A stretch of 64,000 nucleotides of DNA from Verrucomicrobiia bacterium (lineage in GTDB: Bacteria; Verrucomicrobiota; Verrucomicrobiia; Limisphaerales; UBA1319): NCBI GenBank assembly GCA_963664225.1, contig OY760937.1, forward strand, positions 928,001 to 992,000, given 5' to 3'. Positions 20,160-26,292 of this stretch are shown piece after piece. Within the stretch, counting starts at the first letter, position 1. The number at the start of each line of letters is the position of its first letter. A program made the position numbers and the translations under genes. The notes beneath the pieces were generated by a model. The model did no database searches and was not told where the DNA came from. It worked only from the letters and a program-made list of their open reading frames with translations.

Positions 20160-22103
20160 TTACCGGCCTCCGGCCCAATTGATCGCGTTGCGAAAGATGG
20201 TGGTGAACGACTTGTTCTCGAACAGGTCGGGGCCGTGGCCCATGAAGATATACAGGTTCCGGGCGGTCATGTGGTCATTCGTCCAGATCACCGGATGGTC
20301 CCCCATTTTGATATCGGACGATGGAGAGTACGAGGATTCGTCCACGCTGGCCAGCACGTGGACGTTCGGGCGCGGACTTTTGTCGTAGGTGTACCATTCC
20401 TCCCTGGGGATGACGAACGATTCGGGAACGTCCTTCATGCAGGGATGATTCCTGGCCTCCACGCGGACGGTCCCGGCGGCGAACTTCGGGATGTAGTTTT
20501 TGAATTTGATCCCACCCATGAAATCCGAAAACCAGGGCCACATGGGATAGCCGTCGAATTCACCCAGCAGCGTGGCGTGATGAAAGCCGATCCATCCGCC
20601 TTTGCCTTTTTCAATGTAGGACTTGAAGGCGGCCATTGCATCGGGTTTCCAGGTGTATGGAGGAAAATTGAGCTGGATGATGAGTTGGTAGTTCTCGAGC
20701 AACACCGAATTGATGGTGTCTGTGTTGGTGATGTAATCGACTTCAAATCCATCCGCCTGGCCACGTTCCTTGAGCCAGATTTTGGCGGCTTCGACGAAAG
20801 GCCCGTGCTGGCCTCCGGTTTCCGTAAGGATCAAGGCTTTGAGTTTTTGGGATCCAGCCAGGGGCTTCGAGTCAGGAGCTAACAGAGACTGAACAACGTT
20901 GGTGTTAACCCGGCAGTTCCCGGCCTTGAGATTCTCGACCAACTCGAACAATCCCTTGCTGGCAACCTCTTTCGAAGGCCGTTCGCCGGTTTTGTTCCAG
21001 AAATCGACGACTTTTTTGAAATCATCCGGTCGCGTGGCGGTCATGATACTGGTGCCCGAGCTGACTTTTTTGTAGGGCCACCAAGCCCAGCCAATGTGAT
21101 TCTTTTCAACGAGTCTGACGCACTCGCTGAACCATTGGGTGGTATTTTCACCGCTTTCCCCGAGCCAGAGGGGCATGTGGAACTTCTCGCGGAGATCGAG
21201 GAAGTGCGCGATGGCTGCCTGCGTATTCGGATTCCAGTATTTGTGGAAGCTCATCACCATGTTATCGTCCCATGGCCCGGGAAAACCGTTGTAATTATTT
21301 CCCCAGGCGTTGCCCTCAACGATGATGATGTGGTTGGTATCCACACTTCGAATGGCCTTTGTGATGGCCTGGTAGATTTCCCAAATGGGTTGGTTGGTGG
21401 CATCCTGTCTGCCGTTCTTGTCCTTGCCTTCAAAGGTCCAGTTGGGTTCGTTCAGCAAATCATAACCGCCAATCCATGGCTCGTTGGCATATCGCTCGGC
21501 CAGCTTATGCCATAGGGCAACGGTCTTCTGCTGGTTTTCGGCGCTTTCCCACAGGGAAGGTTTTGCCGGATCGTAATCAGAAATGTTGCCATCCTTGCCT
21601 TGACCCCCGGGAGAGGCATGCAGGTCCAGAATCAAATACATTTTGTTCGCCTTGCACCAGGCCAGGAGATTGTCGGTGAGAGTGAAACCATTGGTCAGCC
21701 AGGTGTTCTGTCCTTTAACCGGTTCGTTCTCCATGGGGAGGGTGAAGAGATTGTAGTGCATCGGCAGGCGGATGCTGTTGAAACCGGATTTCGCCAGAAG
21801 ATCGACATCCGGACGGGCCATGTGGTTTTGGAGCCAGAGCTGATAGAACCGGTCGCATTCCTCCCGGCCCACCAGATCGGTGATTCGTGCCTTGATGAGG
21901 TGCTGCATTCCTTCGTTTCTGATGCCGAGCATGTAGCCCTCCTGGAGCATCCAGCCGCCAAGCCCCATGCCACGCAGGATGACCTCCTTGCCCTGACCGT
22001 CCACAACTCGCGAATCTATGGCCCTGAGAAATCCGGCATCCTGGGCCTGGGACGTCGCCAGCAGGGATGCAAACAAAAAAAGCGAGACGGCGAATGAATT
22101 CAT
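20160..22103 (-). CDS. GH5 endoglucanase fused to a C-terminal ThuA domain
   Basis: LRGMGLGGWMLQEGYM, FNSIRLP, LDLHA.PGGQ, YDLLNEP, WLGESGEN; ThuA part GGWIGFHHA, EEWYTY, MGHG. Confidence 0.88.
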   Translation of the reverse strand: MNSFAVSLFLFASLLATSQAQDAGFLRAIDSRVVDGQGKEVILRGMGLGGWMLQEGYMLGIRNEGMQHLIKARITDLVGREECDRFYQLWLQNHMARPDVDLLAKSGFNSIRLPMHYNLFTLPMENEPVKGQNTWLTNGFTLTDNLLAWCKANKMYLILDLHASPGGQGKDGNISDYDPAKPSLWESAENQQKTVALWHKLAERYANEPWIGGYDLLNEPNWTFEGKDKNGRQDATNQPIWEIYQAITKAIRSVDTNHIIIVEGNAWGNNYNGFPGPWDDNMVMSFHKYWNPNTQAAIAHFLDLREKFHMPLWLGESGENTTQWFSECVRLVEKNHIGWAWWPYKKVSSGTSIMTATRPDDFKKVVDFWNKTGERPSKEVASKGLFELVENLKAGNCRVNTNVVQSLLAPDSKPLAGSQKLKALILTETGGQHGPFVEAAKIWLKERGQADGFEVDYITNTDTINSVLLENYQLIIQLNFPPYTWKPDAMAAFKSYIEKGKGGWIGFHHATLLGEFDGYPMWPWFSDFMGGIKFKNYIPKFAAGTVRVEARNHPCMKDVPESFVIPREEWYTYDKSPRPNVHVLASVDESSYSPSSDIKMGDHPVIWTNDHMTARNLYIFMGHGPDLFENKSFTTIFRNAINWAGGR

Positions 22104-22318
22104 AAAGACACGTTTACTTGATTGCGCTTCCAGCATTCAAGCTTGAAAAGTCTCGTGCTCATAGCTGGTTTCGGTCGATTCGTTGCCGCTTCGGCACTTT
22201 GTGACGTGAGATCGTTCATGCTAAATATCCTCGTCATCGAAAAACGCAGGTGTCCGAACGCCCATGAAAATGCCGATTCACATTGAGTCAAATTGGGGCG
22301 GGCTTCGCCGCTGGTTAA

Positions 22319-22482
22319 ACCCGAAATCCGAAATAGGAACGGCCCATCTGACGCAACCATTTGGCCATCCATGGTTTGAAACCGGCTGTGGATTATTGAT
22401 TTAATACACCCTCGCCGATTGCAAATCATGGCTGCCTCAAAGCATTGCATCATCTTGACCCTTCTTATTTCGGATTTCGGGT
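22319..22482. repeat. 24 bp inverted repeat whose right arm is the intron target
   Basis: ACCCGAAATCCGAAATAGGAACGG (22319-22342) versus CCCTTCTTATTTCGGATTTCGGGT (22459-22482): 22 of 24 complementary. Confidence 0.85.
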
Positions 22483-24457
22483 GTGCGCCAGTGAAATTGG
22501 TAGCCTCGTGGGTGAAAGTCCCGCCGGTCGAATTAGACGGTTCACGACCGAAATGCAGCGTCCGGGACGAGGCCGTGAGGCCGAACCACAAGCGGGACGC
22601 TGAAAGAACTGTCGGGTCGTAACGAAAGTAAACCTCATCAAATGAGCTCCGAAACCGAAATAACCGGTAAGCCGAGCCGCTACCCGAACGGCGAAGGCAG
22701 AAACGCGGCGTCATCAAATCGTCAAATGGGCGCTGTTGATTCCGGCGGAGTCAGCGAGGGCGACACGACAGGAAGGGAAACCAAGGTAAGCTGGGAGATC
22801 TCTGGAGGCGGGGCGATAAAGCCTCAACCGCCGGTGCAAGGAGGAACACCCTCCGAGGCCGCACGGGCAGCCAGAGAAGTCGGAGTCTTCCATAGTAGCG
22901 AAGAAGCTGGGGCGACCAAAACCCCGGCGGAGCCAAGGGAAGGCACTTGGATCGAAGCGAATCAAAACAGCGAGGGACAGGGAGATGGCCTTGAGGGAGT
23001 GGAAACACTTTTTCAACGGATAACAACCCCGATAAAAGTTCAAAAGCTGCAGCGAGCGCTATATTGCAAAGCCAAGGCTGAGCCGAAGTATCGGTTTTAC
23101 AGCCTCTACGGAGAACTGCTGCGGAAGGACGTGCTGGAAACGGCAATGGCCTCCGTGGCGCACAACAATGGCGCGGCTGGGATCGACGGGCAGACATGCG
23201 ACGTCTATCTTGCCAGCGACGAAGCCTGGGACCAATGGCGGAACCAACTGCTGGAGGAGTTACGCACGAAGAAGTATCGGCCAAGCCCGGTGAAGCGTGT
23301 GTATATACCAAAAGGAGACGGGAAGCTGCGACCCCTGGGCATCCCGACAGTGAAAGACCGGGTGGTGCAGACAGCGGTGGTGATTGTATTGCTGCCGATT
23401 CTGGAAGCCGATAGTCATCCGAACAGTTACGCCTATCATCCCAAACGCAATGCCCACCAAGCAATGGAGGCGATCAAGAAGGCTACGCTGACAGGACGCG
23501 TCGAAGTTATAGACGCGGACTTAAGCGGGTATTTTGACAGCATTCCCCACAGGCGTTTGTTGCGCATAGTGGCCAAGCGGGTCAGCGATGGAACAATTCT
23601 CAAGCTGATCGCAGGATGGCTGCGCGCGCCCGTGAATGAACCGCAAAGCGACACAGGGAAAGGCGGGACAAAGGGGGGGCAAGGTCAGAATCGACGGGGG
23701 ACTCCGCAAGGCGGGGTTGTATCGCCGATTTTAGCCAATGCATACCTCAACCAGTTGGATTGGGAAGTCAACGAACGCTGCGAACTCAAACCCGTGATGG
23801 TGAGATACGCGGATGATTTCGTGATACTCGGACAGCCGGGGCAGGGACGGGAACTGATGGAACGACTGGAACGATGGCTGAAGCAACGCGAGTTAGTGCT
23901 CAACGAGAAGAAGACCCGCTTGGTGGACCTCCGCCAGGATGGCATCAAATTCTTGGGATTCGCGCTAACAATGCGACAGGGGAAGGGGAAATGGAAATAT
24001 CCGCATGTGGAACCCCATCCCAAGAGCCAGAAGAAGTTTCGAGACGGGATTCGGGAGAAACTCAACCGAAGCACGCTATGGCGTGATATCGGAGAGGTGA
24101 TTCCCGAGCTCAACAAGAAACTCAAAGGTTGGAAGGGTTACTTTCACTACGGGAACAGCACCAAGGTGATGGGCCAGATGAACGAATACGTCAGCAGCAA
24201 GTTACAACGATGGTTGTGGCGCAAACACGGATGTAGTCGGGCGCAATGGTCCACATACCCCAAGGAGGATCTCTATGAGCGTTATGGTTTATACCAAATG
24301 CCGGAATATGCGGCATGGAAACGATGACGTCGAAGCGATGCAACGTATGATCCCCGGAGAGCCGGATGCGGGAAAACCGCCTGTCCGGTTCGATGAGGGG
24401 CGAAATGCGACGGTCATTGGCCACGGCCATTCAATCCGTCCATTTCGCCTACTCTAC
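22483..24457 (+). mobile_element. Full-length group II intron (AGC catalytic triad, not IIC)
   Basis: 5' GTGCG at 22483; domain V GAGCCGGATGCGGGAAAACCGCCTGTCCGGTTC (24359-24391); domain VI with bulged A24451 and AC terminus at 24457; EBS1 ACCCGAA (22682-22688) complementary to exon TTCGGGT (22476-22482). Confidence 0.93.
22999..24327 (+). CDS. ltrA: Group II intron reverse transcriptase/maturase lacking an endonuclease domain
   Basis: GAAGIDG, RVYIPK, RPLGIP..DRVVQ, DLSGYFD.IPH, GTPQGG..SP.LAN, RYADD, FLGF, X domain GWKGYF; no HNH. Start uncertain (GTG 22999 assumed; the ORF-track start 22642 lies in ribozyme domain I). Confidence 0.93.
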   Translation: METLFQRITTPIKVQKLQRALYCKAKAEPKYRFYSLYGELLRKDVLETAMASVAHNNGAAGIDGQTCDVYLASDEAWDQWRNQLLEELRTKKYRPSPVKRVYIPKGDGKLRPLGIPTVKDRVVQTAVVIVLLPILEADSHPNSYAYHPKRNAHQAMEAIKKATLTGRVEVIDADLSGYFDSIPHRRLLRIVAKRVSDGTILKLIAGWLRAPVNEPQSDTGKGGTKGGQGQNRRGTPQGGVVSPILANAYLNQLDWEVNERCELKPVMVRYADDFVILGQPGQGRELMERLERWLKQRELVLNEKKTRLVDLRQDGIKFLGFALTMRQGKGKWKYPHVEPHPKSQKKFRDGIREKLNRSTLWRDIGEVIPELNKKLKGWKGYFHYGNSTKVMGQMNEYVSSKLQRWLWRKHGCSRAQWSTYPKEDLYERYGLYQMPEYAAWKR

Positions 24458-24537
24458 TAAATTGTGCTACTTATTGGCCAGATGGTTAAGGATTCAGCGG
24501 TCGCACTCTCTTATGATCTGCGCATTCAATTCGATTT

Positions 24538-26292
24538 ATGAAAACGACCGCCAGACTGACCGTTCTTGCCGCCGCGTTTGCGACGCTTTTGGCCTACGCC
24601 GCACCGCCAGGACTTGAAACAGCGGAACCTTCGCCGCTCTCGACTTTCTTCATCAATCCGACGCGGGTCGTGTGGCAAAGCGATGCTGGCGCGAAAAACG
24701 CCGGTTCCCTGTTAAAACCGCACGCCGGTCAGGCTGTGCTCAAGGAGCCGCAGCCCCCCTGTGTATTGAACGCCAGTTCCAATTCGTCCGCCGGTGTGTT
24801 GCTGGATTTCGGCAGGGAGCTACATGGTTATGTCGAATTGATCACGCCCATGATGTCTGAACAGGGCAAGCTGCGCCACGTGCGGATTCGTTTCGGTGAA
24901 TCCGTGAGCGAGGCCATGTCGGAGATCGGTGGCAAACAGAACGCCCAGAACGACCACGCCATACGGGATCAAGTGGTAACGCTGCCCTGGTTGGGCAAAA
25001 AGATGGTCGGCCCCAGTGGATTCCGGTTTGTGCGGATTGATAATCTGGACCCGCAACTCTCCGTGGAGCTCAGCCAGGTCCGTGCCGTGCTCCAGATTCG
25101 CGACATCCCACAGGTGGGTTCTTTCAAATGCGACGACGAACGGTTGAACCACATCTGGCAGGTTGGCGCCTACACAGCCCATCTCAACATGCAGGAATAT
25201 CTCTGGGACGGCATCAAGCGCGACCGGCTGGTGTGGATTGGGGACATGTATCCCGAAGTCAACACCATCGACGCCGTATTCGGTTTCAACGAAGTGGTGC
25301 CCCGCTCGCTCGATTTGACCCGGGAAGTCACCCCGGTGACCGAATGGATGAACGGCATTTCCAGCTATTCCATGTGGTGGGTGCTCATCCATGAGGATTT
25401 GTGGATGCACAACGGCAACCGCAAATATTTGGAGGAGCAAAAACCGTATCTCACCGCATTGCTCAAACGACTTGCGGCACTGATCGGACCGGACGGGAAA
25501 GAGCACATCGACGGCATGCGCTTTCTCGACTGGCCCAGTTCGCCCAACCAACAGGGTGTGACTGCCGGTTTGCAGGGATTGCTCGTGATGACACTGGAGA
25601 GCGGCGCGCGAATGATGACCACGCTTGGCGATGCAGTGACCGCAAAAGTCTGCACCGAAGCGGCTGATCGCGGACGCAAGGTCGTTCCCGATGTGAACAA
25701 GTCCAAGTCCGGCGCTGCGTTGCTTTCACTGGCCGGAATGATGGATGCGAAGCAAACCTCCGACACCGTGCTCAAAGTGGGCGGGGCAAAGGATATTTCC
25801 ACCTTTTACGGATTCTATGTCCTTCAGGCATTGGCAAAATCCGGCGACACCGATACCGCGCTGGATTTCGTTCGCACCTATTGGGGCGCGATGATCGATT
25901 TTGGCGCCACGACCTTTTGGGAGGATTTCAACCTGGAGTGGACCAACAACGCAGGGCGCATTGACGAGTTGGTGCCTGCGGGCAAGAAGGATATTCACGG
26001 CGATTACGGAGCCTATTGTTACATCGGATTTAGACACAGCCTGTGCCACGGTTGGGCGAGTGGTCCCACCGCGTGGCTGAGCCAGACGGTGCTTGGAGTG
26101 AAGCCGCTCGAACCGGGCTGCAAACGGGTGCGCATCGCGCCGCAATTGGGCAATTTGAAATGGGTTGAGGGAACGTATCCGACACCCCTTGGTCCGATTC
26201 ACGTCCGCCATGAACGGAAATCGGACGGCACCATCGCCTCGAAAATCGAAGCCCCAGCCGGTATTCAGGTCGATTCCGCAACCAATCTATAA
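24538..26292 (+). CDS. GH78-type alpha-L-rhamnosidase
   Basis: LLDFGRELHG, GFRFVRI, WDGIKRDRLVWIGD, GATTFWEDF, SLCHGWASGP, PTPLGPI motifs; signal peptide. Confidence 0.88.
   Translation: MKTTARLTVLAAAFATLLAYAAPPGLETAEPSPLSTFFINPTRVVWQSDAGAKNAGSLLKPHAGQAVLKEPQPPCVLNASSNSSAGVLLDFGRELHGYVELITPMMSEQGKLRHVRIRFGESVSEAMSEIGGKQNAQNDHAIRDQVVTLPWLGKKMVGPSGFRFVRIDNLDPQLSVELSQVRAVLQIRDIPQVGSFKCDDERLNHIWQVGAYTAHLNMQEYLWDGIKRDRLVWIGDMYPEVNTIDAVFGFNEVVPRSLDLTREVTPVTEWMNGISSYSMWWVLIHEDLWMHNGNRKYLEEQKPYLTALLKRLAALIGPDGKEHIDGMRFLDWPSSPNQQGVTAGLQGLLVMTLESGARMMTTLGDAVTAKVCTEAADRGRKVVPDVNKSKSGAALLSLAGMMDAKQTSDTVLKVGGAKDISTFYGFYVLQALAKSGDTDTALDFVRTYWGAMIDFGATTFWEDFNLEWTNNAGRIDELVPAGKKDIHGDYGAYCYIGFRHSLCHGWASGPTAWLSQTVLGVKPLEPGCKRVRIAPQLGNLKWVEGTYPTPLGPIHVRHERKSDGTIASKIEAPAGIQVDSATNL

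Follow-up and report, generated by a model that had tools for sequence, protein, structure and literature searches.

The 64,000-nt stretch of DNA analyzed here (referred to as the window; contig OY760937.1, positions 928,001–992,000 of assembly GCA_963664225.1, from a Verrucomicrobiia bacterium of the Limisphaerales, UBA1319) contains a group II intron inserted one base beyond the end of a MITE (miniature inverted-repeat transposable element). Both lie between two divergent genes, one encoding a GH5/ThuA protein (20160–22136, minus strand) and the other a rhamnosidase-like protein (24538–26292, plus strand), and fill a gap of 2401 bp that would otherwise measure around 260 bp. The intron (22483–24457, plus strand) is complete, comprises 1975 nt (GTGCG...CTAC), is co-oriented with the downstream rhamnosidase-like gene and represents one of 19 identical copies in the genome. 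We found that these copies are associated with the ends of the MITE and of a related IS1380-family insertion sequence (IS), which they most probably recognize by RNA–DNA base pairing. Positions given below are those of the window, unless referred to the genome (G000:C1).

The intron, its protein and its target

The MITE (22320–22481) is a non-coding element of 162 bp (CCCG...CGGG) with IS1380-type ends, and no open reading frame (ORF) of at least 50 aa is wholly contained in it. It is preceded by the left copy of its 5-bp target-site duplication, TTAAA (22315–22319). The right copy is split by the intron: its first T (22482) precedes the intron, and the remaining TAAA (24458–24461) opens the 3' exon, with T24458 at the IBS3 position (IBS, intron-binding site). 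The left (22319–22363) and right (22438–22482) arms of the terminal inverted repeat, the latter closed by T22482 of the right duplication copy, consist of 45 nt each and are 78% complementary. The inverted repeat of 24 bp described in an earlier sequence-only reading of this locus is thus real, and its right arm is indeed the target, but it is longer than was claimed. Also the second target proposed by that reading is present in the left arm: the minus strand bears TATTTCGGATTTCGGGT|T (22335 down to 22319), which is an exact match to the target (genome positions 950319–950335, minus strand), is free of an intron and lies in the orientation referred to below as unfavourable.

We determined that the genome also carries a 1532-bp IS in five identical copies, whose terminal bases are the same as in the MITE. 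Its 473-aa transposase is recognized by the IS1380-family model NF033539 (227 bits, cut-off 180) and by Pfam DDE_Tnp_1_4. The common terminal bases together with the assignment of the transposase identify the inverted repeat as the terminal repeat of a MITE that is akin to an IS of the IS1380 family. Target duplications in the IS1380 family are short, 4–5 bp. With up to two mismatches allowed, the 17-mer target is found 53 times in the genome of 5.78 Mb (39 exact matches) and the reversed-pattern control gives no match, which argues that the fit between the exon-binding sites (EBS) of the intron and the target is not due to chance. Most of these occurrences form inverted pairs, 147 nt apart, and a blastn search of the genome with the 164-nt unit returned 19 uninterrupted MITE copies, 3 interrupted ones and 3 fragments. 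The motif is therefore not unique to this locus. The idea of spread through a palindromic repeat family, put forward from the sequence alone, stands insofar as all 19 identical intron copies lie at the motif, but the repeat is the terminal repeat of the MITE and the IS and not a free-standing palindrome.

Some of these elements show further particularities. At the IS end neighboring the transposase start, an outward-pointing hairpin with a T-run (L009, 1592–1620) is positioned immediately before the intron target. Two MITE copies (G000:C1:828002-831676 and 2984654-2988329) harbor the IS1380-family IS, inserted in both at an identical internal TTTAA and with identical relative orientation; these composites possess their own outer duplications (TTGAG and TTTAA) and may have moved as a unit, and their introns sit at different IS ends, both on the plus strand. 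Another MITE copy (L010, G000:C1:264453-266681) is broken by an IS of another kind, whose transposase is of the IS1634 family (NF033559, 329 bits), and its left outer flank is devoid of the usual TTWAA.

As for the intron itself, domains I–IV match the Rfam model RF02005 of the IIB-type D1-D4 ribozyme (54.9 bits, cut-off 49, 22515–22760) and domains V/VI match RF00029 (49.3 bits, cut-off 40, 24357–24457). Domain V (24359–24391, plus strand) is a 33-nt hairpin that starts with GAGC and contains the AGC triad (24360–24362) noticed at first sight, a 2-nt bulge and a 5-nt loop, GAAAA. Domain VI (24395–24454, plus strand) forms a long stem of 60 nt in which the A at 24451 is bulged out, 7 nt ahead of the 3' splice site; its minimum free energy structure equals the centroid (−56 kcal/mol, z −7.0). 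Domain IV encodes a reverse transcriptase (RT)/maturase, whose open frame extends over 22642–24327 (plus strand), with the conserved protein starting from about 23002. The protein retains the YADD motif and is recognized by TIGR04416 (356 bits, cut-off 300), while Pfam detects RVT_1 (1.8e-34), GIIM (1e-13) and no other domain. An endonuclease (En) domain of the D/En (HNH) type was not found with the Pfam and NCBIfam models, and the ORF stops 25 aa past the GIIM match, in agreement with the En-less lineage suggested earlier.

EBS1 (ACCCGAA, 22682–22688, plus strand) is placed by the fold in a 9-nt terminal loop closed by GCCG/CGGC and pairs with IBS1 (TTCGGGT, 22476–22482, plus strand), which is composed of the last 6 nt of the MITE and the first T of the target duplication. 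The candidate EBS2 (CCGAAAUAA, 22655–22663, plus strand) is located in domain I, in the variable loop that comes after a conserved CGAAA. Its sequence, CCGAAATAA, is complementary to IBS2 (TTATTTCGG, 22465–22473, plus strand), i.e., positions −18 to −10 of the 5' exon, and the pair search extends to 12 nt at 92%. Both pairings had been anticipated by the sequence-only reading, and both are found here: EBS1 by its sequence, fold and covariation in relatives, and EBS2 by its complementarity. The ligated-exon junction predicted for the window copy is ...TTTCGGGT|TAAA....

Relatives of the intron were taken from genome and metagenome collections and comprise 14 loci on 13 distinct contigs (L108 repeats that of L015), with RT identities to the window protein of 57–84%, below which identity falls to around 42%. 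In eight of them the 5' exon is readable, and in all eight EBS1 is unlike that of the window. The exon is fully complementary to EBS1 in six (L012, L013, L014, L107, L109, and L110), whereas one G-U pair is present in L106 and one mismatch in L111. On this comparative evidence EBS1-IBS1 covaries with the 5' exon across the relatives, matching exon changes being found in seven of the eight. The EBS2 pairing measures 9 bp in the window and 4–7 bp in five relatives, where it retains the same register (3' end at −10); at the occupied sites of the window genome only TCGG of IBS2 is invariant. The EBS2-IBS2 pairing is reported to be dispensable for self-splicing of IIE/IIF introns, and the suggestion was made that this pairing has a role in homing (PMC3753933). 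One further metagenome contig (L105, 2209 nt) contains the intron of a relative for which the 3' end of this intron is found upstream and its 5' start downstream. Tandem copies arranged head-to-tail, an intron circle and an assembly cycle are possible explanations, and the upstream 'exon' mismatches EBS1.

Copies, insertion register and target duplications

The 19 intron copies are 100% identical over all 1975 nt. Immediately before each of them stands TTCGGGT and immediately after it TAA (10 copies) or TTA (9 copies), a T being the first base of the 3' exon in all of them, as well as in the five relatives for which the 3' flank was read. Eight copies are localized at right and five at left MITE ends, four at IS ends (three adjoining the transposase start and one after the transposase) and two at solo ends, for which neither a partner repeat nor a nearby IS1380 transposase was found. 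MITEs with an intron at each of the two ends do not occur. At one solo site, the 5' flank of the intron (G000:C1:3973869-3974268) is made up of other short repeats, with matches of 66–150 nt at around 20 places in the genome, and these repeats end about 10 nt before the intron target motif.

When the 19 introns were removed in silico, identical 5-bp flanks were obtained in 19 of the 20 intact elements (15 MITEs and 5 ISs). The restored duplications are TTAAA, TTTAA or TTTAT, with TTAAA for the window copy, and the sole exception is ATTAA vs. TTAAA; two imperfect copies outside this set fit the 5-bp model by eye (TTGAG and TTGAA). The intron is thus positioned between bases 1 and 2 of the duplication, one base outside the transposon. 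As the duplications are restored by removal of the intron, each intron must have come after the local transposition, as an independent event. The register of the duplication also fixes the intron boundaries; the end was originally placed at 24460, which is 3 nt too far, the real end being 24457. In turn, the GT|TRRRY context, initially taken for the register of IIC-attC introns, is explained by the TTWAA duplication, since the TAAAT/TTAA that follows the intron is the remainder of the 5-bp duplication of the transposon.

Contigs of 4 (X1, X3, X5, and X7) of 24 sequencing runs were examined. In those of X1, possibly the source of the assembly, the intron has a depth of 462 vs. 22–23 for the unique flanks, an approximately 20-fold difference that fits the copy number. 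X5 and X7 are metagenomes in which contigs of an intron variant, extending over window positions 22598–24259, have seven substitutions in common relative to the window copy, and hence a close relative of the intron is present in other samples. The contigs of the four runs neither support nor exclude splicing or empty alleles, and six RNA runs contained only 6–8% of words.

Strand asymmetry and the proposed mode of spread

Introns on the plus strand are found at 0.045–0.95 Mb (five copies) and 2.986–5.61 Mb (eight copies), and those on the minus strand at 1.66–2.19 Mb (six copies). They form two orientation blocks on the circle, and the contiguity of the six minus-strand copies has a probability of P = 7e-4, with no origin assumed. 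A census of sites returned 55 matches to CGGAKTTCGGGT, of which 49 are followed by an intron or by TAA/TTA; the remaining six were dropped from the occupancy count. With the origin at 2.98 Mb, just left of dnaA (2,990,590–2,991,069), introns occupy 19 of the 25 favourable sites and none of the 24 unfavourable ones (Fisher 1.2e-8). If the origin is set at 2.99 Mb, the respective counts are 18 of 25 and 1 of 24 (8e-7), and the counts are unchanged for any terminus between 1.0 and 1.6 Mb. The favoured orientation is the one that has the intron sense strand on the lagging-strand template. Independent markers are in rough agreement with the intron blocks, namely the position of dnaA, a coding-strand bias with negative values between about 1.2 and 3.2 Mb and positive ones in the rest of the chromosome, a turn of the GC skew at around 1.25–1.45 Mb, and the two 16S genes, both on the plus strand at 3.99 Mb. 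Over most of the single contig the GC skew is positive (cumulative +116,285), and it is near zero at 1.4–3.6 Mb; this pattern, with dnaA at 2.99 Mb, implies either very unequal replichores or recent large rearrangements.

We consider it highly probable (around 0.85) that this is an active, En-less intron of the IIB type (IIF-like), which retrohomes by RNA–DNA pairing to the outer junctions of the IS1380-family elements and the MITE. EBS1 (7 bp) and EBS2 (4–9 bp) would pair with the junction, and the recognized DNA would consist of the last ~17 nt of the terminal repeat and the first T of the 5-bp TTWAA duplication. Each transposition would create two new sites in opposite orientations. The intron, presumably transcribed from its copies and still mobile at present, would fill the site at which its sense strand becomes the lagging-strand template, and reverse transcription would be primed by nascent lagging strands at replication forks. 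With such priming a lagging-strand bias is to be expected, because the intron protein is devoid of a nuclease, and such a bias is reported to have been demonstrated experimentally for the En-less introns RmInt1, RmInt2, and Sr.md.I1 (PMC4615759).

An improbable alternative is that the asymmetry arises from selection or transcription context, e.g., that only copies co-oriented with neighboring genes survive, and not from replication-coupled priming. The coding-strand bias concerns the same blocks, so that the directions of transcription and replication are confounded, and the orientation of the window intron with respect to the rhamnosidase-like gene conforms to such a scheme. Yet, the coding bias is weak (absolute maximum of 0.34 and mostly <0.2 per 200 kb), while the asymmetry of the introns is nearly absolute. 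Moreover, the identity of the copies leaves little time for purifying loss, and the experiments with the three introns mentioned above link the bias to replication.

We attribute a similarly small chance to structure-guided targeting of the IIC or IIC-attC kind, in which the MITE would form a DNA hairpin with its 3' base recognized by the intron and a short TRRRY-like motif downstream would set the register. IIC introns have a short EBS1, no EBS2, a shorter domain V and a target defined by a stem-loop. The intron studied here resembles them and the IIC-attC introns in that it has no En domain, is intergenic and occupies the 3' base of a hairpin-forming repeat: the empty MITE as single-stranded DNA forms a single extended hairpin (−49 kcal/mol, z −8.8), at the 3' base of which the insertion site is located, and 13 of the 19 introns are found at MITE ends. 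Among the relatives, L013 and L107 lie at the 3' end of inverted-repeat elements of ~77 and 160 nt, respectively, and L110 comes after a terminator-like hairpin, as judged by eye. On the other hand, EBS1 has 7 bp and covaries with the exon, EBS2 is present with 9 bp, the triad of domain V is AGC and domains I–IV match a IIB-type model. In addition, four introns are placed at ends of the 1532-bp IS, with 1.5 kb separating them from the partner repeat, and for the two at solo ends a search revealed no partner; thus, at 6 of the 19 sites there is no near partner arm, and the hairpin is not required. The downstream TAA/TTA belongs to the duplication of the transposon, and a hairpin would pair the IBS bases with the other arm and hinder EBS pairing. 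A search of the empty MITE against Rfam at E ≤ 1 gave only two chance microRNA matches, the existence of an attC model in Rfam not having been verified. A IIC assignment was rejected on the basis of EBS1, EBS2 and the six sites that have no near partner arm.

Another alternative of low probability is hitch-hiking, in which a transposase would have spread the introns passively as DNA beside an IS1380-family end. In its favour, the IS1380 members ISEcp1 and ISPme1 are reported to mobilize the DNA that borders one of their ends and to possess outward promoters (PMC9330008), and the two MITE::IS composites share an internal junction. Against it, deleting the intron brings back the 5-bp duplication of the element itself in 19 of 20 cases, and introns are found at either end of MITE and IS alike, with a choice that tracks chromosomal position and not element polarity. 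Furthermore, the two composites bear the intron at different IS ends, and no duplications flanking element-plus-intron units were seen.

Several observations weigh against retrohoming to these junctions by base pairing at replication forks. The positions of the origin, placed at dnaA, and of the terminus are provisional and not established, and the GC skew is untidy; the implied replichores are very unequal (about 1.7 vs. 4.1 Mb), and a fit of the mean-centred skew, which delimits a block of 1.25–3.7 Mb, puts 2 of the 19 introns in the unfavourable orientation. Six favourable sites are empty, three of which are identical in sequence to occupied ones. Strong EBS2 pairing is limited to the window genome; in the relatives, where EBS2 pairs over 3–7 bp overall, it often does not surpass shuffled sequences, and only two of the five same-register pairings beat 95% of shuffles. 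With regard to expression, a sigma-70-like promoter was not found in the MITE region or in the IS, with a consensus that may not suit this organism, and a terminator-like hairpin is situated just inside the IS end that holds three of the four IS-associated introns. Finally, the joint 22482>24458, which would indicate ligated exons or an empty site, was not seen in the contigs of the four runs.

The genome represents an unusually clean natural experiment on the movement of En-less introns, with 49 near-identical sites in both orientations, distributed around a single chromosome, of which about three quarters are filled in one orientation and almost none in the other. It also displays a three-layer nesting of parasites, with the intron on the MITE/IS and the MITE/IS on the genome, where the intron site exists only after transposition. 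The orientation of such introns could serve to mark the direction of replication forks where GC skew is uninformative, as here.

Class, precedents and relatives of the intron

The nearest labelled RT is that of Ni.ha.I1, with 40% identity over 430 aa, and the identity of the window RT amounts to 30% with the class D reference and to 31% with the g1 reference. Class labels were adopted from Tables S1 and S2 of PMC3552965, in the text of which the names Bradyrhizobium, Verrucomicrobia, and Planctomycetes were not found; the only class D reference originates from pBpOF4-01, and the reference B.th.I3 (DQ363750) was missing from the plasmid collection. In the RT tree, which has 24 rows with class D, g1, and F/g3 as the reference classes, the window groups with four close relatives in a clade supported at 100/100. 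This clade joins the second intron of the genome and the g3 clade at 90/84, without D and g1, the three-way split being unsettled and the branches long. The g3 introns constitute a separate clade (98/98) without the window clade, and the class D reference is the outermost branch. The ribozymes are recognized by separate models: the window intron and L013 match RF02005, the g3 members RF02003 and the class D reference RF01999. A 5-nt domain V loop is reported for IIE/IIF introns and a long structured domain VI for IIF introns (PMC3753933); the GAAAA loop and the 60-nt domain VI of the window intron correspond to both traits. Overall, the intron looks IIF-like. Class D (IIB3) was rejected given the 30% RT identity, the outermost place of its single reference in the tree and the different ribozyme model (RF01999 vs. 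RF02005).

The strategy of using both inverted repeats of an IS as targets, along with a lagging-strand bias, is already published for RmInt2 and ISRm17. RmInt2, an En-less class D intron of S. meliloti GR4, is reported to have seven copies, identical to one another and situated without exception in ISRm17 inverted repeats, and to prefer the lagging-strand template in homing (PMC4615759). Similar to RmInt2, the intron described here is En-less, occurs in identical copies suggestive of a recent burst, uses two IS inverted repeats with one site per strand, shows a bias toward the lagging-strand template and tolerates an imperfect EBS2/IBS2. It differs in having 19 copies, in not belonging to class D, in matching another Rfam D1-D4 model and in its targets, which are an IS1380-family IS and mostly a MITE, whereas the family of ISRm17 is not stated in the papers. 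The insertion is here one base outside the element, whereas that of RmInt2 is described as 'within the inverted repeats' (PMC4615759). Sinorhizobium was not among the top ten genera of plasmid matches to the IS1380 transposase of the window genome.

RmInt1 (S. meliloti, class D, ISRm2011-2) is likewise reported to be En-less and to colonize an IS with a lagging-strand bias and in high copy number (PMC4615759; PMC5894124), but it inserts within the transposase gene, where each IS offers a single orientation, and both the intron class and the IS family are different. In turn, Ni.ha.I1 from plasmid 1 of Nitrobacter hamburgensis ('bacterial class F'), of about 1.9 kb and listed in a transposase gene, was assigned to class F/g3 by Toro and Martinez-Abarca, 2013 (PMC3552965, Table S2). 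It shares with the window intron the N-terminal LQRxLYCKAKAEP motif and the lack of an En domain, yet Ni.ha.I1 and the other g3 members form their own clade and have ribozymes that match RF02003, not RF02005.

Among the papers listed by full-text searches for group II introns homing to MITE or IS1380 ends, none was relevant; PMC4853749 was discarded as a precedent, since it concerns a group I intron carrying a MITE. What is new here is the intron lineage, the IS family and the MITE, the insertion in the duplication just outside the element and the scale (19 copies, with around three quarters of usable sites filled), to which a clade-wide association with IS1380 elements may possibly be added. 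The results extend those of the RmInt1/RmInt2 plasmid assays to a whole chromosome, in a different intron class and phylum.

As regards this wider association, the 5' exons of six relatives (L012, L014, L106, L107, L109, and L111) are homologous by alignment and end with ...CAACTGCCGTTTTCAGGT. In L107, this exon is the right arm of the ~160-bp inverted-repeat element, and L013 is positioned at the end of its 77-nt palindrome; for L014, no partner arm was found within 486 nt. A scan for AACYGYCGTTTTCAGGT in one genome per species returned at least 120 stretches, and 80 loci (82 matches) were examined. By our own estimate a few hundred chance matches are expected in a collection of this size, many of those examined are probably fortuitous, and only repeated, paired or transposase-linked matches were used. 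Among the matches listed, the motif recurs inside several genomes and forms inverted pairs 161–236 nt apart in L187, L218, L240, L244, and L247. The elements of L218 and L244 are flanked by 5-bp duplications, TTGAA and TTCAA, and in L194 and L241 the motif borders IS1380-like transposases, which are 25–30% identical to that of the window genome. None of the 82 matches examined is followed by an intron, draft assemblies being prone to break at such repeats.

These findings suggest, without proving it, that the clade follows IS1380-type termini at the same one-base offset. It is a tentative reading, to which we give somewhat less than even odds, that the intron clade as a whole (the window intron and at least 10 relatives from several phyla) is specialized on the outer junction of IS1380-family elements, as opposed to one fortuitous case of retargeting. 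The motif ...CAACTGCCGTTTTCAGGT|T, in which the exons of the six relatives end, is elsewhere the terminus of transposase-bearing IS1380-like elements and of 160–240-bp MITEs with 5-bp TTNAA duplications, and in the window genome EBS1 would have been altered so as to fit another IS1380-type terminus. For its expression and transfer between genomes, the intron might moreover profit from the outward promoters reported for the IS1380 family and from the mobilization of adjacent DNA. If true, specialization across the clade would imply long-term co-evolution of a retroelement lineage with a DNA-transposon family and make the intron a follower of transposition, with two sites provided by each IS/MITE jump, one of them always usable by the fork. 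Within the bacterial family, the window intron and the MITE were not found in the nine other genomes searched, which are drafts and thus weak evidence, and four of these nine contain only distant intron matches.

The window genome possesses a second group II intron family with four copies (G000:C1:1676503-1678505, 2329485-2331485, 5161411-5163379, and 5604127-5606107), which are mutually 99–100% identical and encode an RT 42% identical to that of the window. These introns have no obvious GTGYG start, and their differing 5' flanks share a TTGAG..CT.TG-like motif. One of them adjoins a 1281-bp repeat, presumably an IS, of which around 11 copies are present at 98–100% identity (e.g., G000:C1:1674981-1676261).

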